From: a virus
DNA: 56,226 nt
Virus record (IMG/VR): IMGVR_UViG_3300045988_142515
Span: 1 to 56,226 of that record
Reading direction: 5' to 3' (one strand)
Part shown: piece after piece, positions 3,004 to 49,615 of the stretch
How positions within the stretch are numbered: position 1 is the first letter of the stretch
How the letters are laid out: each line of letters starts with the position of its first letter
The notes under the pieces: generated by a model
Database searches by the model: none
The model's input: only the letters and a program-made list of their open reading frames with translations
What the model was told of the DNA's origin: nothing
Program-made: the position numbers and the translations under genes

Positions 3004-3360
3004 ATGATCGATTCACGAACCGCCCAGCAGCCCGCCAACCACCTCACCACCCAGGAGCCCACTGTGACCCAGACCACTACCCCCTCCGCCCCCTCCGCCG
3101 ACCAGCTGACCGACCAGATGAAAGTGATCGCCGCCACCGCCTCAGCCACCCTCGGCCTGACCCAGGTCAACGAGTGGCGCACCGGCCGGATCGGCCTCAT
3201 CAAGGAGCACAGCCCGCTCCAGGCCCGCATGAGGGTCGAGGACGGCCAGGTCGTGGCCCGGATGACCGGCCGCGAGCGCGGCGGGCGAGAGGTGGCCGGC
3301 CAGATGGCCGACGTGCTGGACGCCCTCGTGCAGCACTTCGAGGCGCCCCTGCCCGCCTGA
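3004..3360 (+). CDS. hypothetical protein (118 aa)
   Basis: ATG 3004 inside ORF 2968..3360. MIDSRTAQQPANHL... Confidence 0.6.
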   Translation: MIDSRTAQQPANHLTTQEPTVTQTTTPSAPSADQLTDQMKVIAATASATLGLTQVNEWRTGRIGLIKEHSPLQARMRVEDGQVVARMTGRERGGREVAGQMADVLDALVQHFEAPLPA

Positions 3361-3390
3361 CCGGACGGCCGCCTCCCGGCGGCTTGCAGC

Positions 3391-3428
3391 AGGCCCCGCT
3401 CACCTGAGGAGGTGGGCGGGGCCTTTTC
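3391..3428 (+). terminator. intrinsic terminator
   Basis: aggccccgctcacc / ggtgggcggggcct stem (one mismatch), followed by tttt. Confidence 0.65.
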
Positions 3429-3540
3429 ATGCCCGTGAAGGGGTCTAGGAGCGTTTCTGACGGACTTTCATGGCCGGGTAGGGCCCGTCATACGGGCGGC
3501 AGGTTCTAAGCCGTCAGAGGGGCTTACACGGCCTCACAGG
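3428..3540 (+). repeat. 113-nt conserved non-coding element, copy A (copy B at 39940..40052)
   Basis: Three blocks sit at identical offsets in both copies: catgccc (0), gagcgYttctgacggacttt (+21), tcagaNNggcttacacggc (+86). The spacers between them are divergent. Confidence 0.7.
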
Positions 3541-4665: not shown

Positions 4666-4703
4666 CGGCGCCAGCGCTCCGCTGCGCTCCGCGGCGAGGG
4701 CGC
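4666..4703. other. hairpin H3: GGCGCC/GGCGCC stem carrying the conserved loop cgctccgctgcgctccgc
   Basis: The loop core is identical to the H1 loop (39595..39638) and nearly identical to the H2 loop (39794..39835), but the stem sequence is different. Confidence 0.5.
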
Positions 4704-4984
4704 CTGGGCGATGAGTGCGCAGCGATGTCATACACCCGGCCGCGAGCACTCGCTCCATGGGCCTAAGGCCCTGGCGGAGGCGTGCATGCCAGGGTGCACA
4801 CCGCCTGCGCCTAGGGGCTCCGGCGGGTGCAGCCATGGCATACACGCCCCGGCAGGGGAGGGCTGTGCGGGGCGGCTCACCTCGGGGCGGGGTGTCGATC
4901 GGTCGCTGCGCTCCCTCTCGAACCGCCCCGGGCTCGGGGTGCCCGCTACGCCCTCGGAGGTAGGGCGAGGTCGGGGAGGGCGTC

Positions 4985-5206
4985 TCAGCCGAGGGGGCTG
5001 AACGGGCTGGCAAGGAGGCCTCCCAGACAGAGGGCAGCCCCGAGCAGGGTCGCACACACCAGAGCCAGGAAGAGGATGTCCGGGCCGGTGGGGGAGCCTG
5101 TCAGGCCGCGAGAGGGGTCGGGATGGCGGTAGCCGGGGCAGGCGGGGGGCTGCGAGCCTCCGACGGCCTTGTAACGCCGGTGGCGGGGGCGGTAGGGGGT
5201 AGACAT
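4985..5206 (-). CDS. small membrane protein (73 aa)
   Basis: ATG at 5206 preceded by AAGGAGA plus a 5-nt spacer. C-terminal TM helix ILFLALVCATLLGAALCLGGLLA. In frame with ORF 4985..5647. Confidence 0.55.
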   Translation of the reverse strand: MSTPYRPRHRRYKAVGGSQPPACPGYRHPDPSRGLTGSPTGPDILFLALVCATLLGAALCLGGLLASPFSPLG

Positions 5207-5277
5207 GTCAGGTCTCCTTAAAAGGCTGTGAGGGGCTGTGAGACGGTCGGGAGGACTGTGAGGGCTGAGAGGACGGC

Positions 5278-6093
5278 CTAGCGCCGGACCAGGCCGGTCA
5301 TCGAGCCGTCCTCCTCGAGGACCACGGCGTGGCGGGCGTCGGAGCTGGCGTGGGCCAGGCAGGGCATGGGGGTGTCTGGGGCGGTGGTGCAGCGGGGCAG
5401 GTCGAGAGGGGACGCTGAGGGGTCGTTCTTCGAGTAGGGGGCGCAGGTGTCGGAAGTGACCCAGCCCGGGGCGGGAGCCGAGGCGGGGGCCGGGGAGTGA
5501 GCGGAAGTGATGGGAGAGGGGGTGGTAACGCGCGTTAGCGTGCAACCCTCCGGGGAGGCGGGGGTGGTGGGGTGGGAGGGCGTGGCGGAGGGGTATGGGG
5601 TCCCGGCCTGCTCCGGAGTCGAGGTTCCGGCGCCGGTTCCGCGGCACTCACGCTGGGCCTGATTCCAGTCCTGAGCGGCTAGGGCGTGGCAGTAGGCCCG
5701 AGCGGTGCGGTGGGCGTTGATGGCGGCCACGTTGCAGGCCCCGAGCAGGGCGGCTACGAGGGCGGCGCCGATGGCGAGCTGCATGAGGGAGGGGTGCCAC
5801 CTCATGGAGGGGCGGCGCAGGATGCCGGGGCGGCCCATGTCCTGGAGGGGGGTCTCCTGCTCGGCCTGCTGGGAGGGGGCCTGCTCGGTCGGGCCAGGCC
5901 GGGATGGGGCGGCGAGCGGCAGCTCCTCGGTCGGCGTGCGGTCGCGCCAGCCGGCGAAGGGGGCGGCGTGGCTGGGGTGGGCGGGCCGGCCCGTCGGGTA
6001 GGTGCCCGTCGGGTAGGTGCCCGTCGGGTAGGTGCCCGTCGGGCGGTCGGTGTGCGGGCGGTCGGTGTGCGGGGCGCTGGGGTGGTTGCTCAT
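5278..6093 (-). CDS. membrane-anchored repeat protein (271 aa): HTDRPx2 and TGTYPx3 repeats, one TM helix, Pro/Thr/Ser-rich Cys-containing C-terminal domain
   Basis: Leaderless ATG 6093 lies 6 nt after the -10 of the minus-strand promoter. MSNHPSAPHTDRPHTDRPTGTYPTGTYPTGTYP..., TM helix LMQLAIGAALVAALLGACNVAAI. Confidence 0.6.
   Translation of the reverse strand: MSNHPSAPHTDRPHTDRPTGTYPTGTYPTGTYPTGRPAHPSHAAPFAGWRDRTPTEELPLAAPSRPGPTEQAPSQQAEQETPLQDMGRPGILRRPSMRWHPSLMQLAIGAALVAALLGACNVAAINAHRTARAYCHALAAQDWNQAQRECRGTGAGTSTPEQAGTPYPSATPSHPTTPASPEGCTLTRVTTPSPITSAHSPAPASAPAPGWVTSDTCAPYSKNDPSASPLDLPRCTTAPDTPMPCLAHASSDARHAVVLEEDGSMTGLVRR
5990..6073. repeat. two adjacent in-frame 15-bp tandem arrays (cccgtcgggtaggtg x3.6; cggtcggtgtgcggg x2)
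   Basis: Read directly. They encode the TGTYP and HTDRP pentapeptide repeats of the minus-strand gene. Confidence 0.9.
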
Positions 6094-6099
6094 GCCCCT

Positions 6100-6129
6100 A
6101 CTGTATGACGGCATACGGGGTGGGTGCAA
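6100..6129 (-). promoter_or_regulatory. minus-strand promoter with GTATG-N4-CATAC palindrome; leaderless start at 6093
   Basis: On the minus strand: TTGCAC (6129-6124), 18-nt spacer, TACAGT (6105-6100), then 6 nt to the ATG. Palindrome at 6103-6116. Confidence 0.6.
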
Positions 6130-6400
6130 GTCCGGGACCGAAGGCGGCCGGGCCAGGCCGGGCTCCCTCGTCCTGGGAGGGGTCGAGGCGCTCGCGGGGC
6201 GGCGCCGGCCCCTCGTGAAGCTATGCCTATTTAAACCGCGCGTACGCGGGCGCGCCTGTGGTGGCACGGCCCTCCGGCCGCGGTGTGGGACCTAGGTCCT
6301 ACCAGAGAGGGGCGGGCCGGAGGGGCGGGGTGGCAGGCCGCGAGCGCGAGACGGCCTGCTGTGTACGGTGTACGCGGGGAGGTGGCTTGACCGAGGGGAG

Positions 6401-6475
6401 GTGTGGGGTGGGGTGGAGTGGTGGTGTGGGGTGGGGTGGAGTGGTGGTGTGGGGTGGAGTGGTGTGGTGGAGGGC
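6401..6475 (+). repeat. G-rich 23-bp tandem repeat gtgtggggtggggtggagtggtg x2.7-3 (G-quadruplex-capable)
   Basis: Units at 6401-6423 and 6424-6446 plus a degenerate third unit. Five or more GGGG runs. Confidence 0.85.
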
Positions 6476-6615
6476 GCAGCCCCTTCGTGCTCGGAAAGGG
6501 CACCCCTATGGATAGGCCCCTATACATAGGCATGCACGATGGGGACGAGGCAGGCCGGCCGGCCGCCCTTCGCTCATAGGATCCGCGAGCGCGGGGCCGT
6601 CCACTCATAGGTCTT

Positions 6616-6656
6616 CCTGATGAGGGAGGGGCGATCGATGCCCCTTATCGATCAGG
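6616..6656. other. 41-nt composite hairpin centred on gatcgat
   Basis: cctgat-gagg-gaggggc-gatcgat-gcccctt-atcg-atcagg. Three ATCGAT sites lie within 6633-6715. Confidence 0.5.
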
Positions 6657-6742
6657 CCCGGACCGAGGGGGCGAGCCCGCGCCCATGGGGTTTCCTAATG
6701 TTTACGGAGAGATCGATAGGGAGGGGGTGGGCTTGGCCCCCC

Positions 6743-32931: not shown

Positions 32932-35085
32932 TCAGGAGTAGAGCTCCCAAGCGGAGGCGTTCCCTCCCTGGGCCTCAAAGGTGAGGATTGCCGGCTTGGT
33001 GGAGTCCCCTGAGATGTTGGTCCACCAGTCTGAGCCGCGGTCGGCGGAGGGGCAGGAGATGATCCAACGCGAGTCCCCGACCTGGCGGACACCGAAGTTG
33101 TGCCAGTGCCCGTGGACAAGGATCCTGGCGTCGTAGAGGCCGCTACGGCGGCCGAACGCGAGGTCTCTGAACCATCCGGGCACCTTCGACTGTGAGCCTG
33201 CCAGGTGGCCGTGGGTGAAGCCGATGCGGGTCCCGTCCGCGGCGTCCACGGTAACGGCCTCCTCCCACTTCTCGGGACGGTGGAAGGTGACGTGCTCATA
33301 TCCTGGGCGGTCGGCGATGATGTCTTCGATGTTGTGGGAGATCATGATGCCGAAGTCGTCGTCTGGGGCGTTGGCGCGGGAGTTCTTCCCCGTACCGGTG
33401 CGCACCGCGCAGTGGTTGGACGGGACGGCCACGTAGTAGAGGGACTCGCACAGCGGCGCGAGCAGCTGGACGGCCTCGGCGTAGAGGCGTTGGACAGTGC
33501 GAATCTGATCGGTCAGGGACAGGTCGTTGGTCTGGGCCTGGCTGGCGACGTTCCAGAAGCCCTCTGTCGAGTCCCCGACGTCTGCGAGGATGATGCGCTG
33601 ATACGGGGCCGGCTCTGTGAGGTCGTCTGCGATGTCCTTCAGGGCGCGGCGCACGAGCCGGACCGTGTCCTCCGTGCCGCCACCACTTCCACAGTTGTGC
33701 GTGAGTGTCAGTTCCCGGCCAGCCAGATACTCCCCACCCTCGACGGTGATGCACTGAGCCATGCCCCGGCCCGCAGGAACCACGTCGATCACGGACAGGC
33801 GATGGTCCCGCCTCTCTGTAGACGGCCGCTGATTGGCGGCCTTGCGAGGGAGTCGGAACATCGGCCGGTCTGCTCGGAACTGAATGCGCCAGTGTTGCTT
33901 GCACTGGGCATCGCCGTAGTGTCCGATAGCCGTAGTTACCTTGGGGGTTACTCCCTCCAAGTGGAGGAGGGTGAGGACGCCGTCGATGATGTTCTTGTTG
34001 GTGTTGCTAAACTCGATGGCGCCTGACCTAGGGTTGCAGTAGCCGTCGGAGTCCATGAGGCCCTGGAGGAGTGCGAGGCGCTGCTCAGACGAGGCTTGCA
34101 GATACGCCTCGGGGATGTGCTTGTTGTCCTTCAGTCCCGCCAGTCGAAGATCCCGGGTTAGGCCGTCTACGACGACGGTGCCCAGGCCCTCCCGGGACTT
34201 GATCTCGTGCCCAAGGGCGAGCAGGTGGTCACGATCCACGGCTCCCTTGGTGATACGCCCGCCCGAGGCTCGCCCGTCCCCCAGCCAGAACCCCAGGATG
34301 TAGGGGTCGATGGGGAGGCTGGCCTCGGGCAGCTCGATCGGGCTATGCGCCCACACCTTGAAGGGCCGCATCCTACCGGCCCGCATTCGGGTGATCTTCA
34401 TGATCTCCTCAGTCGTGAGAGTCATCTCACGGTCCTCCCACCGGGACGTGTCTCCCTCAGGGTGCATGCGGCGACGGCCGCTCCATAGGTGGCCTGAGGT
34501 AGCCCGCAGCGCTCGCCCCTCGGGGAAGGTGACGTCGAAGAGGTCCTGCTCGGTCGAGCCGGTCACTGCAAGGATGCGCTTCGGCTTACCGTCCCGGCCA
34601 TAGACGTGCATGCCCGGGCGGAGGTCCCCGTGGCGCTTCCAGCCGTCGGTCGTCAGGACCGGGGTTGAGTCTTCAAGAGCTTTGCCTACCTGAAAGTCCG
34701 CCAGGCAGACCACCGGCGTCGACTCGATCGGGCCGGACGGGCTGGTCGCCCTAGGCAGGAGAGGCTCGCGAAAGACGGGCTCCAAGTCCTCGTAGGAGAG
34801 GCGCTTAGCCTCCTCCATCTCAACGGCTCCGGGGCGGTACTCGATCTTCTCGTACGAGCCGTCGGCGAGGCGGACGGTCTTGCCGCGCTTCGTGATGGCA
34901 CCTACGGGGAGGTCGAAGAACGCGTCGCGGTCGAACTCATCCCGGCCCTTGCGTTTCAGGGCGCGCCTATGCCGGCGCACGGTCGCCTCGGAGGTGTTGA
35001 ACTCCTCGGCCAGGTCGACGTTCGTCTTGCGCTCTCGCTCGGGGAGCTCGTCGTTGGCGATGATCGCCTCGTCCAGCGGACTCAT
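32932..35085 (-). CDS. HTH-domain calcineurin-like metallophosphoesterase precursor interrupted by an intein (717 aa)
   Basis: N-terminal HTH NVDLAEEFNTSEATVRRHRRAL. MPP motifs LADFQVGK | ILADVGDSTE, VPSNHC, FTHGH, LVHGHWH. RBS aggagaccc. Confidence 0.8.
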   Translation of the reverse strand: MSPLDEAIIANDELPERERKTNVDLAEEFNTSEATVRRHRRALKRKGRDEFDRDAFFDLPVGAITKRGKTVRLADGSYEKIEYRPGAVEMEEAKRLSYEDLEPVFREPLLPRATSPSGPIESTPVVCLADFQVGKALEDSTPVLTTDGWKRHGDLRPGMHVYGRDGKPKRILAVTGSTEQDLFDVTFPEGRALRATSGHLWSGRRRMHPEGDTSRWEDREMTLTTEEIMKITRMRAGRMRPFKVWAHSPIELPEASLPIDPYILGFWLGDGRASGGRITKGAVDRDHLLALGHEIKSREGLGTVVVDGLTRDLRLAGLKDNKHIPEAYLQASSEQRLALLQGLMDSDGYCNPRSGAIEFSNTNKNIIDGVLTLLHLEGVTPKVTTAIGHYGDAQCKQHWRIQFRADRPMFRLPRKAANQRPSTERRDHRLSVIDVVPAGRGMAQCITVEGGEYLAGRELTLTHNCGSGGGTEDTVRLVRRALKDIADDLTEPAPYQRIILADVGDSTEGFWNVASQAQTNDLSLTDQIRTVQRLYAEAVQLLAPLCESLYYVAVPSNHCAVRTGTGKNSRANAPDDDFGIMISHNIEDIIADRPGYEHVTFHRPEKWEEAVTVDAADGTRIGFTHGHLAGSQSKVPGWFRDLAFGRRSGLYDARILVHGHWHNFGVRQVGDSRWIISCPSADRGSDWWTNISGDSTKPAILTFEAQGGNASAWELYS
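33694..34680 (-). mobile_element. intein (329 aa, residues A136-N464) with a LAGLIDADG homing endonuclease; class-3-like signature
   Basis: Starts ALEDSTPVLTTDGW (Ala1). Block B TSGHLW (Trp at B:12). LAGLIDADG motifs LGFWLGDGRA and LLQGLMDSDGY. Block F AQCITVE. Ends LTLTHN followed by C+1. Confidence 0.8.
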
Positions 35086-35123: not shown

Positions 35124-35154
35124 ATTCTATCCCTGTCCCCAGCCTTTTCCACAA
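35124..35154 (-). promoter_or_regulatory. candidate promoter of the phosphoesterase gene
   Basis: On the minus strand: TTGTGG, 19-nt spacer, TAGAAT. Confidence 0.35.
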
Positions 35155-47500: not shown

Positions 47501-48685
47501 ATGAGTCCCACCCAGCGTCCCGAGGAGGACGTCATCACGGCCGAGAAGGCCACCTACTCCGCACTAACCCTCCACCGGCGATGCCCGCAGGCGTGGAAGT
47601 ACCGCTACATCGACGGCCTGCGCCGCGCCCGGTCCGAGGTCACGCCGGCCCTTGACTTCGGTAGCTGGTTCCACGCCGTCCGAGCCGCGGACAGGCTCGC
47701 CGAGGGCCGCGCCGAGGGCACGCTCAAGGTCGACCTGGAGGAGATCCAGACCACGGACACCGGCCCGACGTTCCCAGGGACCGTCTCACCTGATGAGATC
47801 ATCTCCGCCTCCCAGGACTACTGGGACCGGCTCGGGGAGACGGCTCGCGAGACCTGGCTGGAGTGGCTGGGCCAGCCCCTCCCCCAGCGTCTCGCCCACG
47901 TGTACGCCGAGTGGCGGGAGCGCTGGGCTGAGGACTCTGAGAACGAGGCCGTCATCGCCGTCGAACAGCGCTGGGAGCGGGAGATTCCCGGCACCGGCGT
48001 CACGCTCTGGGGTTATGCGGACGAGGTCTACCAGGATCGCAAGCGCGGCATCGTCGTGGTGCGGGACTGCAAGACTTCCGGCACCCTCGGGCAGGTTACG
48101 AGCCTGGACGAGATGATGGACAGCCAGGTCCAGCTCTACGCGTGGGGCCTCGGACCTGCCTGCGATGAGTGGGGCGTGCCGCGCCCCCGAGCCGTCGCCT
48201 TCGATCGCGTACGGTCCAAGGCGCCGAAGACTCCCAAGATCACGAAGGCCGGCAAGCTTTCCGCATCGGTCAAGGACTACGACCTGCGGACTTACCTGGA
48301 GTGGTGCGCCGACGGCGTCCCCTTCGAGGGGATGAAGAAAGATGGCAGCGCCGCGGGTGTCTACACGGCCGAGGAGGCCGAGATCGAGCGCCTGACCTCT
48401 CAGCAGGTCGTCTCTCAGTGGTTCGCCAAGCACCTGACCCCGGTCAGCCCGTACCTTGTCCGCTCCCACCTCCAGGCCGCGGCCGACACGTGCTCTGACA
48501 TCTCCCGTACTCGAGTCCGGGCAGATCGGCGCGGCGAGGCCCCCCGTAACTTCGGAAAGGCCGCGTGCCAGTTCTGCGAGTTCGCTGACCTGTGCCGTGC
48601 GCAGATGGTCGGGGGTCCGGGCGGGGAGTACGCGCCGGAGGAGTACGGCCTCCGCTACCGTGACCTGTCTCACCTCGGTAGGTAG
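47501..48685 (+). CDS. Cas4/RecB-family PD-(D/E)XK exonuclease with Fe-S Cys cluster
   Basis: N-terminal RRCPQAW. GYADEV...VVVRDCKTS. QVQLYAWG. C-terminal CQFCEFADLC. Confidence 0.75.
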   Translation: MSPTQRPEEDVITAEKATYSALTLHRRCPQAWKYRYIDGLRRARSEVTPALDFGSWFHAVRAADRLAEGRAEGTLKVDLEEIQTTDTGPTFPGTVSPDEIISASQDYWDRLGETARETWLEWLGQPLPQRLAHVYAEWRERWAEDSENEAVIAVEQRWEREIPGTGVTLWGYADEVYQDRKRGIVVVRDCKTSGTLGQVTSLDEMMDSQVQLYAWGLGPACDEWGVPRPRAVAFDRVRSKAPKTPKITKAGKLSASVKDYDLRTYLEWCADGVPFEGMKKDGSAAGVYTAEEAEIERLTSQQVVSQWFAKHLTPVSPYLVRSHLQAAADTCSDISRTRVRADRRGEAPRNFGKAACQFCEFADLCRAQMVGGPGGEYAPEEYGLRYRDLSHLGR

Positions 48686-48695
48686 CCTTTCAGGC

Positions 48696-48725
48696 TTGCG
48701 ATGCCCGCAGGCATACGCCTACAGT
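48696..48725 (+). promoter_or_regulatory. promoter GGCTTGCGA, 18-nt spacer, TACAGT
   Basis: -35 at 48696-48701, -10 at 48720-48725. Half-site gcatacgcc in the spacer. Confidence 0.5.
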
Positions 48726-48757
48726 TAAGTCACCACCCAACGGCGGAAGGAAATTCA

Positions 48758-49615
48758 ATGACCAGTTTCGCAGGCGTCAACATCGTTGACGTTGAGGAGG
48801 AGGCAGCCGACTACGGTCGGTGGCTGATCCTAGGGGCGCCCGGTTCCGGAAAGTCGAGTCTTGCCTCAACCGTCGCCACGATGGGCAAGGCCCTGTTCAT
48901 CGACCTCCCCGGGGAGAAGGGTACGCAGTCCTTCAAGAACGCCCCGTACGCCAAGAACATCGACGTGGTCCGCCCCGAGAGCGTCACTGCCCTGGACGAC
49001 ATCTTCTGGAGCCTGGACAAGGGCGGACACGGTTACAAGGCCGTCATCATCGACAGCCTTACCGCCCTCCAGAAGATGACGATGAGGTACCTCACAGGCT
49101 TCTCGGAGACCGCGGTGCGAGAGATCAAGCAGGGCACCGCCCCCGCCGACCAGCGCACCTGGGGGCAGGCTCTCGACATCATGACCGACACGGCAGTGTT
49201 CTGGTACGGACTTGCCGACGGGAACCGCAAGGAGCCGATGCACGTCGTCATGACTGCCCAGGTCAAGATGGTCGAGGACGAGATCAACGGCGGTGTGCGC
49301 CGCTCGCCGGACGTCCAGCGCGGCGCTCAGTCGATCATCCGGGCCACACCGAACTACATCATCTACGCCGATGTAGAGGAGGATCTCGACAACTCCGGCC
49401 GCGACGACGGCCCCTCGCTGAAGCACATTGTCCGCTTCGGCACTGACCCGGAGTACGGGACCAAGGCCCGTATCCCCTATAACCTTCGCGGGAAGGTCCC
49501 GTCCGTCCTCGGGCGCGACCACCCCGTGACTCTGGAGAAGCTCTCCCGCTTCCTCGGAGTGGGCGGAGTACCGGAGCGCAAGCCCGCCGCCAAGTCGGCC
49601 AAGACCGACGACTGA
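48758..49615 (+). CDS. RecA-like/Sak4-like AAA ATPase (285 aa)
   Basis: Walker A LILGAPGSGKSSL. Walker B AVIIDSLTAL. ATG 48758 after ggaagga. Confidence 0.7.
   Translation: MTSFAGVNIVDVEEEAADYGRWLILGAPGSGKSSLASTVATMGKALFIDLPGEKGTQSFKNAPYAKNIDVVRPESVTALDDIFWSLDKGGHGYKAVIIDSLTALQKMTMRYLTGFSETAVREIKQGTAPADQRTWGQALDIMTDTAVFWYGLADGNRKEPMHVVMTAQVKMVEDEINGGVRRSPDVQRGAQSIIRATPNYIIYADVEEDLDNSGRDDGPSLKHIVRFGTDPEYGTKARIPYNLRGKVPSVLGRDHPVTLEKLSRFLGVGGVPERKPAAKSAKTDD

Follow-up and report, generated by a model that had tools for sequence, protein, structure and literature searches.

The question raised by this locus is what divides a phage enzyme in the middle of its active site, and how an enzyme so divided could become functional. 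In the 56,226-nucleotide viral sequence examined (IMG/VR record IMGVR_UViG_3300045988_142515, positions 1 to 56,226; the whole stretch is called the window below), a 717-amino-acid (aa) open reading frame (ORF) on the minus strand reads as a metallophosphoesterase that is interrupted after its first catalytic motif by 329 residues. The interpretation judged probable is that this ORF is a metallophosphoesterase precursor with a class-3-type intein after motif I, that the intein leaves by the class 3 route, and that its endonuclease can be expected to home; we infer splicing, the order of its steps, and homing. The element is of a known kind; what is new is the host protein, the insertion site, and an unusual preference for Cys at the first residue after the intein (+1).

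Precursor gene and boundaries of the insertion

The gene and its parts were located as follows (a slash in a motif marks a splice junction or insertion point throughout).

32932-35085, minus strand: precursor gene, stop codon included, for a 717-aa helix-turn-helix (HTH)-metallophosphoesterase interrupted by the intein; taken from the ORF list, with the spliced sequence matching phrog_284 over its full length.
34681-35085, minus strand: N-extein, aa 1-135, 91% identical to aa 1-135 of the intein-free homologue P0001.
33694-34680, minus strand: intein, 329 aa, with a Hint splicing domain and a nested LAGLIDADG endonuclease; assigned from the insertion gap, homology, and predicted fold.
32932-33693, minus strand: C-extein, aa 465-717 plus stop, containing motifs II-V; 98% identical to aa 138-388 of P0001.

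Residues 136-464 of the precursor (329 aa) correspond exactly to 33694-34680. All of the strings quoted in an initial annotation made from the sequence alone were found in the translation (LADFQVGK, ALEDSTPVLTTDGW, TSGHLW, LGFWLGDGRA, LLQGLMDSDGY, AQCITVE, THN/C, GD, SNHC, THGH, and GHWH). For database searching, aa 1-135 and 465-717 were conceptually joined, and the resulting 388-aa query returned 1018 proteins. The best 120 of these were intein-free; 92 were exactly 388 aa long, and all were of 386-388 aa except one of 415 aa. Identity of intein-free homologues to the spliced sequence reached 96%. Aligned with two annotated phage homologues and with the two database alleles closest to it, the precursor showed a single 329-residue gap, the exteins being otherwise colinear. 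At the level of DNA, the match to the closest intein-free contig (L010) ended at 34682 and restarted at 33676; it was thus lost precisely over the insert and 18 variable bases. The initial annotation had proposed an alignment of the spliced extein to intein-free homologues, and this was continuous apart from the 329-aa gap at residues 136-464, supporting an insertion. The insertion at these residues is confirmed as real and its boundaries as exact.

Homology and predicted fold of the insert

The insert was compared with 50,697 phage genomes using tblastn. Full-length matches of 35-39% identity were obtained (best E = 4e-51). The matching inteins lie in TerL of cluster J mycobacteriophages and in DnaB of Brevibacterium phage Rousseau, and the Catera gp206-type intein matched as well. 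The best sequence matches among solved structures were the class 3 mini-inteins MchDnaB-1 (6RIX/6RIY) and Msm DnaBi1 (6BS8), with E of about 1e-6; the 6BS8 chain has 139 residues, and residues 4 and 329 of the insert aligned with its residues 4 and 139, so that the termini coincide. Pfam identified LAGLIDADG_3 in the insert at 3.9e-8, above threshold.

The AlphaFold model of the intein, based on 44 homologues, had a pLDDT of 93.8 and a pTM of 0.91. It matched PI-SceI (E of about 1e-19, TMq 0.72-0.75), and further matches were to VMA inteins, PI-PfuI, and I-DmoI. The Hint part of the model matched MchDnaB-1 and Msm DnaBi1 with target-normalised TM values of about 0.8; for the mini-inteins the range was 0.76-0.81. 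PI-SceI (the Sce VMA1 intein), the best whole-chain structural match, has the same arrangement of Hint and LAGLIDADG domains; in contrast to the present intein, it is of class 1 (Cys1), is eukaryotic, and has an extra DNA-recognition region, and the two are only about 15% identical. A clean in-frame indel, full-length homology to phage inteins, and a predicted Hint-LAGLIDADG fold like those of PI-SceI and the class 3 mini-inteins together bear out the initial call of an intein. By homology and predicted fold, the insert is confirmed as an intein that carries a LAGLIDADG endonuclease and is predicted to splice.

Class 3 signature and proposed splicing route

Class 3 inteins lack an N-terminal nucleophile and have a Trp(B:12)-Cys(F:4)-Thr(G:5) (WCT) triplet, of which the block F Cys forms the first branched thioester (PMC2807308). 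A phage origin has been proposed for them, and forms bearing a LAGLIDADG domain are well established (PMC2807308, PMC5050341). The splicing blocks of the present intein are these.

34639-34680, minus strand: block A, ALEDSTPVLTTDGW, with Ala1 at 34678-34680 and so no N-terminal nucleophile; placed by alignments.
34477-34515, minus strand: block B, RALRATSGHLWSG, with Thr B:7 (aa 196), His B:10 (aa 199), and Trp B:12 (aa 201, 34483-34485); aligned to 'aHqW' of 6RIX and 6BS8.
33718-33765, minus strand: block F, GMAQCITVEGGEYLAG, with Cys F:4, which is Cys445 (33751-33753), the proposed first nucleophile; aligned to 'vrCveV' of class 3 structures.
33691-33711, minus strand: block G plus the +1 residue, LTLTHN/C, with Thr G:5 (aa 462), His463, Asn464, and Cys465 (+1); placed by alignments with class 3 structures, phage inteins, and database homologues.

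In intein numbering, the signature consists of Ala1, W66, C310, and T327-H328-N329. W201, C445, and T462 aligned column for column with 6RIX, 6BS8, and Catera gp206. The class 3 assignment in the initial annotation was upheld to this extent: Ala1, Trp B:12, Cys F:4, and T-H-N all align with the solved class 3 inteins 6RIX and 6BS8, and Catera gp206 shares W, C, and T-H-N; the chemistry is that predicted from these residues. Among the nearest 120 intein homologues in the database, Lys was found at position -1 in 107, Ala1 in 104, Trp B:12 in 117, and Cys F:4 in 110. The complete WCT triplet was present in 103 of the 120, and the remainder were mostly truncated sequences. These comparisons show a class 3 signature in the insert, from which the splicing chemistry is predicted.

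Because the intein lies between motif I and the rest of the catalytic core, the precursor would be unable to assemble the metal site. The intein would remove itself after translation, most likely by the class 3 route. In this scheme, Cys445 (F:4), positioned with the help of His199 and Trp201 of block B, would attack the K135-A136 bond to form a thioester branch, and the N-extein would then be transferred to Cys465 (+1). Cyclisation of Asn464, assisted by His463, would release the intein, and an S-to-N shift would leave a K135-C465 peptide bond. The expected products are a 388-aa enzyme and the free intein.

Host protein

The catalytic motifs and the N-terminal domain of the host protein were assigned as follows.

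34681-34704, minus strand: motif I, LADFQVGK (D130, Q132, G134, K135), with the intein after K135; in a family alignment of 49 sequences, Q132 and G134 do not vary, and D130 and K135 are nearly invariant.
33559-33588, minus strand: motif II, ADVGD; motif residues invariant in the family alignment.
33409-33426, minus strand: motif III, PSNHC; motif residues likewise invariant.
33205-33219, minus strand: motif IV, THGH; motif residues likewise invariant.
33097-33117, minus strand: motif V, GHWH; motif residues likewise invariant.
34945-35025, minus strand: putative HTH, aa 21-47; sub-threshold Pfam HTH_24/HTH_11 matches, model helices at 22-28 and 33-47, and a 'helix-turn-helix' fragment in BFVD at 65% identity.

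The intein separates motif I from motifs II-V; as had been noted from the sequence, the insertion immediately follows motif I (after K135), splits the active site, and leaves motifs II-V in the C-extein. In P0001 numbering, the metal-binding residues D130-x-Q132, G175-D176, N228-H229, H296, and H331-x-H333 were invariant or nearly so in the 49-sequence alignment. The spliced sequence matched phrog_284 'exonuclease' at E = 1e-52, covering profile positions 23-378 of 398. In Pfam, the extein matched Metallophos_2 below the gathering score (16.2 bits versus a cut-off of 27; E = 0.011), and no meaningful match to it was found in NCBIfam or among PDB sequences. The model of the spliced protein had a pLDDT of 85, exceeding 90 across the catalytic domain, and it matched the PolD DP1 proofreading exonuclease, Mre11, and SbcD (E of 1e-9 to 1e-6) as well as viral calcineurin-like phosphoesterases. 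The names given to homologues in actinophages are 'MRE11 double-strand break endo/exonuclease', 'metallophosphoesterase', and 'exonuclease'. The phrog_284 match and the model matches to PolD DP1, Mre11, and SbcD thus sustain the metallophosphoesterase identity first proposed, despite the sub-threshold Pfam result. The proposed HTH fared less well: the three-helix N-terminus of the model and the BFVD fragment favor it, but the Pfam matches lie below threshold. Taken together, the modeling supports a host protein with the β-sandwich fold of an Mre11/SbcD/PolD-DP1-like metallophosphoesterase and a putative N-terminal HTH-like domain.

Throughout the family, the His of motif I is replaced by an invariant Gln (D-x-Q; Gln132, 34690-34692). 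The phosphoesterase that serves as recombination directionality factor (RDF) in cluster A phages (Bethlehem gp52, L008) is unrelated and has the same Gln change (PDTQLP). Two intein-free homologues in GenBank, PP511596 and OR148984, are named 'polymerase/primase' and 'putative YonJ'; these names look wrong, as predicted structure and motifs point to an Mre11/DP1-like metallophosphoesterase. The present identification explains such misleading names among the gene's relatives, and under it the 717-aa 'LAGLIDADG' protein of oral phage contigs would be a nuclease precursor.

Endonuclease, selection, and junction residues

The two LAGLIDADG motifs lie between blocks B and F.

34267-34308, minus strand: first LAGLIDADG motif, DPYILGFWLGDGRA, with catalytic Asp270 at 34276-34278; across 44 homologues there is no variation at G130, W132, L133, G134, D135, or G136 (intein numbering).
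34039-34080, minus strand: second LAGLIDADG motif, RLALLQGLMDSDGY, with catalytic Asp347 at 34045-34047; covered by the Pfam LAGLIDADG_3 match (3.9e-8), with D210, D212, and G213 invariant.

Both catalytic Asp residues (D270 and D347) and the block D Lys were invariant across the 44 homologues, and the LAGLIDADG fold is indicated by the model matches to PI-SceI and I-DmoI. The LAGLIDADG domain of the free intein would be expected to cleave, near ...CAGGTAGGCAAA/TGTGGAAGTGGT..., the intein-free alleles of relatives that infect the same cell, after which recombinational repair would copy the intein into the cut allele. The phage has a recombination pair of its own, a PD-(D/E)XK exonuclease (47501-48685, plus strand) and a Sak4-like annealing protein (48701-49615, plus strand); this pair could mend a break made by the endonuclease and thereby aid homing.

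Five other intein-bearing alleles were found. One of them, P0241, spans the full 717 aa, and the others are fragments on contigs; the sources that are named are oral metagenomes. Pairwise dN/dS values (nonsynonymous over synonymous divergence) were calculated by the Nei-Gojobori method among five alleles. The intein gave 0.09-0.16, with 0.09-0.17 in the endonuclease core and 0.00-0.11 in the Hint blocks; the exteins gave 0.08-0.21. The splicing and endonuclease parts are under strong purifying selection (dN/dS of about 0.1). In the contig of one allele, P0121 (L003, 178-2328), the intein-bearing ORF stops early, after 565 aa, and a separate ORF of 137 aa comes next; the cause is either a frameshift in the phage or an assembly error.

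The intein was followed by Cys-Gly-Ser in all six intein-bearing alleles, with codons that differ synonymously. Among the 120 intein-free alleles, Cys was found at the +1 position in two (Fisher p = 6e-9 versus the intein-bearing alleles). The tripeptide after GK (C465-G466-S467, 33685-33693) is hypervariable in these alleles (P0001-P0120), where it reads TQS, AAS, VGK, VAQ, RSS, and others, and its positions rank 5th, 13th, and 15th in variability among the 268 positions of the catalytic domain. Since Cys-Gly-Ser is fixed with the intein and variable without it, these residues seem to be under constraint in intein-bearing alleles alone, which is what a need for splicing would predict. That the tripeptide varies through an arms race, in escape from the endonuclease, is speculative, as the same loop varies in length and sequence in distant members with and without inteins; an unconstrained loop explains the hypervariability equally well.

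Distribution of inteins in the family

A search of 1.84 billion cluster representatives returned 849 members of the metallophosphoesterase family. Among the best 150 of these, six had class-3-type inteins at the same GK/ site, with Ala1 or Gly1, the WCT triplet, and Cys or Ser at +1; P0125, P0127, and P0128 represent three further inteins at the GK/ site. A related class-3-type intein in P0258 lies three codons upstream (ADYQ/CGK versus QVGK/C; corresponding to about 34684-34692 of the window). Many intein-free alleles of the window's lineage carry Cys at the P0258-type position (ADLQCGK); this may be coincidence, a footprint of intein loss, or a potential target. Three members (P0255, P0359, and P0380) harbor, inside motif III (SNH/C), a class 1 intein (Cys1 ... 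GN/C, with penultimate Gly) that is unrelated to that at the GK/ site. One phage nuclease family has thus been invaded at two active-site motifs by inteins of two mechanistic classes.

In deposited phage genomes, the best match among those listed was 38.5% identical to the intein, compared to 41-49% for same-site inteins; the occupied GK/ site therefore seems to be absent from isolated, deposited phages. The Actinoplanes proteins P0124 and P0126, annotated as free-standing 'LAGLIDADG family homing endonuclease', are about 350 aa long and 45-48% identical to the intein. Their junctions are decayed (THN to TQD or TYH; AQC to ARS), and almost no extein is left; they are probably relics, like the Arthrobacter Arth_1007 pseudo-intein. 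The next-nearest relatives of the intein (P0139-P0240) are mostly found in bacterial dCTP deaminases, with the junctions LEGK/A ... THN/SSLG. Lys occupies position -1 in nearly all intein homologues, often as Gly-Lys; this may reflect a need of the splicing reaction or else a GGnAAR target held in common, which would ease a switch between host proteins.

Weighing of alternative explanations

Several results weigh against a class 3 intein that splices and homes as proposed. The initial annotation had named the lack of a Hint-domain match as a result that would refute it, and in Pfam this was formally the outcome, as no Hint or intein-splicing model matched the insert at E ≤ 1; the sequence and fold matches to Hint domains of known structure take the place of that evidence. 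The +1 residue is also atypical: among 108 intein homologues it was Ser in 88, Thr in 11, and Cys in nine (i.e. Ser or Thr in 99), and from the sequence a direct attack by Cys+1 is conceivable. As for homing, synonymous divergence (dS) among the intein-bearing alleles was 0.7-1.3 in the intein and 0.5-0.8 in the exteins. With intein dS at least as large as that of the exteins, nothing points to recent homing; such homing would show as almost identical inteins within diverged exteins, and the opposite was found. Finally, the three intein-free alleles that were compared as DNA all differed, within the nine bases 3' of the insertion point, from the flank found in intein-bearing alleles, and none of them carried the fused flank GGCAAA/TGTGGAAGT, so that no obviously cleavable target was seen. 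It is possible, albeit less likely than homing, that the intein splices while its endonuclease no longer homes, making the intein a vertically inherited passenger whose endonuclease fold is kept for structural reasons. The dS values and the missing target both point that way, as do the six same-site inteins, which are 39-49% identical in exteins that are 31-40% identical and so fit long co-divergence. On the other hand, the dN/dS of the endonuclease core is not relaxed, and no variation was found in either LAGLIDADG motif, in their catalytic Asp residues, or in the block D Lys. The patchy spread of the intein, in about six alleles versus more than 120 intein-free clusters, with N-exteins that each resemble different intein-free alleles, fits gain by homing.

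The remaining alternatives concern splicing itself. In class 2-like chemistry, Cys465 would attack K135-A136 directly, as in the KlbA inteins, and Cys445 would be structural. Ala1 with Cys+1 is indeed the class 2 combination (PMC2807308), and Cys+1 marks the subgroup at the metallophosphoesterase site, where eight of the nine Cys+1 homologues are located. However, the WCT triplet found here is by definition missing from class 2 inteins (PMC2807308), the intein groups by sequence with the solved class 3 inteins, and same-site relatives having Ser (P0347) or Thr (P0127) at +1 keep Cys F:4. Moreover, in Bvi IcmO, the sole Cys+1 class 3 intein to have been tested, Cys+1 was unable to replace the block F Cys (PMC5222942). 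The direct attack is accordingly considered improbable. Still less credence was given to a dead relic that does not splice and leaves the metallophosphoesterase a pseudogene. Decay does occur in this intein lineage (P0124 ends in TQD/C, and P0126 has ARS for AQC), and the Arthrobacter Arth_1007 intein is a precedent (PMC3196547); yet in the present gene no catalytic residue has been lost, the frame stays open over 717 codons, exteins and intein are under purifying selection, and the C-extein is 98% identical to an intein-free allele. Least plausible of all, to the point of being scarcely tenable, is a permanent domain insertion, i.e. a nuclease or DNA-binding module fused into the enzyme. Recognition by Pfam of the LAGLIDADG domain alone would suit such a fusion, but the predicted N- and C-terminal β-strand regions match Hint-domain mini-inteins, conservation extends to the terminal Asn and to blocks A, B, F, and G, and motif I would be split from motifs II-V in the core of the fold.

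Comparison with known inteins

Like the class 3 inteins of actinobacteriophages (LittleE gp9, Redno2 gp9, Catera gp206, and Rousseau DnaB; prototype MP-Be DnaB), the present intein combines a Hint domain with a nested two-motif LAGLIDADG endonuclease. Trp B:12, Cys F:4, and T-H-N are common to all four aligned phage relatives, and Lys at -1 to three; Ala1 is shared with LittleE and Rousseau, the corresponding residue being Ser in Catera and Asp in Redno2. The sites differ, being motif I of a metallophosphoesterase here and the TerL/DnaB P-loop or the Cas4-like PD-(D/E)XK motif in the actinophage inteins. The latter have Thr or Ser in place of Cys at +1. Blocks B, F, and G align residue for residue with 6RIX/6RIY and 6BS8, but MchDnaB-1 and Msm DnaBi1 are mini-inteins of 139-146 aa without an endonuclease, residing in bacterial DnaB, whereas the intein in the window has 329 aa and an apparently intact endonuclease. 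Both mini-inteins have Ser or Thr at +1.

A 2025 survey of actinophages reported class 3 inteins in only four host proteins: TerL, Cas4 exonuclease, DNA helicase, and minor capsid protein (10.1101/2025.01.02.630785). The same survey lists a phosphoesterase as an intein host without giving a class (10.1101/2025.01.02.630785), and in full-text literature searches no Mre11-like metallophosphoesterase was found to have been reported as host to a class 3 intein. The short list of class 3 hosts would therefore gain one protein and one site; the understanding of inteins is unchanged by it, and the case, ordinary in other respects, is moderately interesting for specialists on inteins.

The RDF of cluster A1 mycobacteriophages, comprising the Bethlehem 'phosphoesterase' gp52 (AY500153; gp51 in Kelley 2016) and the Bxb1 gp47 family, contains an intein (PMC5050341). 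There, too, a LAGLIDADG intein interrupts a conserved motif of a phage calcineurin-like metallophosphoesterase with Asp-x-Gln in motif I. That intein is of class 1 (Cys1, ...GN/S) and is located at motif III (GNHD/C), whereas the one in the window is class-3-type and follows motif I; the Bethlehem gp52 extein had no significant BLAST match to P0001. Identity with the cluster A1 RDF intein was rejected, as class, site, and extein family all differ. The motif III inteins of P0255, P0359, and P0380 resemble the Bethlehem RDF intein in position, and their similarity to it in sequence is weak (E of about 1e-8).

The combination of WCT and Cys+1 without an N-terminal nucleophile is also found in Bvi IcmO of Burkholderia vietnamiensis (PMC2807308, PMC5222942), which was described in 2009 and in 2016 as the only Cys+1 case in class 3 (PMC2807308, PMC5222942). 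Bvi IcmO is a bacterial mini-intein in a type IV secretion ATPase, and it was likened to the present intein by these features. The inteins at the metallophosphoesterase site would constitute a natural group of Cys+1 class 3 inteins, with which the supposedly obligatory order of the two branched intermediates could be put to the test. Behavior of the reversible-disulfide type has been shown for the catalytic Cys of the related class 3 intein Msm DnaBi1 (PMC6195587). By analogy, the present intein might also be a conditional switch, a reversible Cys445-Cys465 disulfide stalling splicing under oxidizing conditions, but this is thought unlikely. Were it so, activation of an Mre11-like nuclease would be gated during infection of oral actinobacteria, and the near-exclusive Cys+1 of the inteins at this site would reflect that role.

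Genome context and minor observations

The window represents a tailed-phage genome of about 56 kb with a G+C content of 66%. Genes on the plus strand encode the portal, a MuF-like head protein, the major head protein, the tape measure, tail proteins, and an endolysin; further genes on that strand encode a family A DNA polymerase, primase, helicase, PD-(D/E)XK exonuclease, Sak4-like annealing protein, and TerL. The window is about 80% identical to half of 'Dulem virus 38', whose circular 56-kb genome was assembled from the saliva of a lemur. No relative of the phage was found in a scan of GTDB species genomes, and the assembly collection held no record of the exact 717-aa protein; the leads to a host are relatives from oral and saliva metagenomes and the G+C content of 66%. 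The metallophosphoesterase gene is situated divergently upstream of the DNA polymerase gene, and one further feature was noted between them.

35124-35151, minus strand: promoter-like site lying some 40 nt ahead of the ATG, within the divergent region that the gene shares with the DNA polymerase gene; a weak candidate from a consensus scan (one site found versus 0.4 expected).

In L010, the closest intein-free relative, a 152-aa DUF7448 gene (3006-3464) follows the nuclease gene on the same strand; the window has no counterpart downstream of 32932. The initial annotation had described the metallophosphoesterase gene as the only large one on the minus strand. This is plausible, in that all ORFs with PHROG matches are on the plus strand, but it is unproven: a 329-aa ORF at 5278-6267 on the minus strand, for which no family matches were found, lies in strongly positive GC skew and may be a second minus-strand gene, which would contradict the description. 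This ORF encodes TGTYP repeats and a hydrophobic segment, and the surrounding region (4700-6700) differs from most of the genome in its G+C content of 0.70-0.74 and its GC skew of +0.31.

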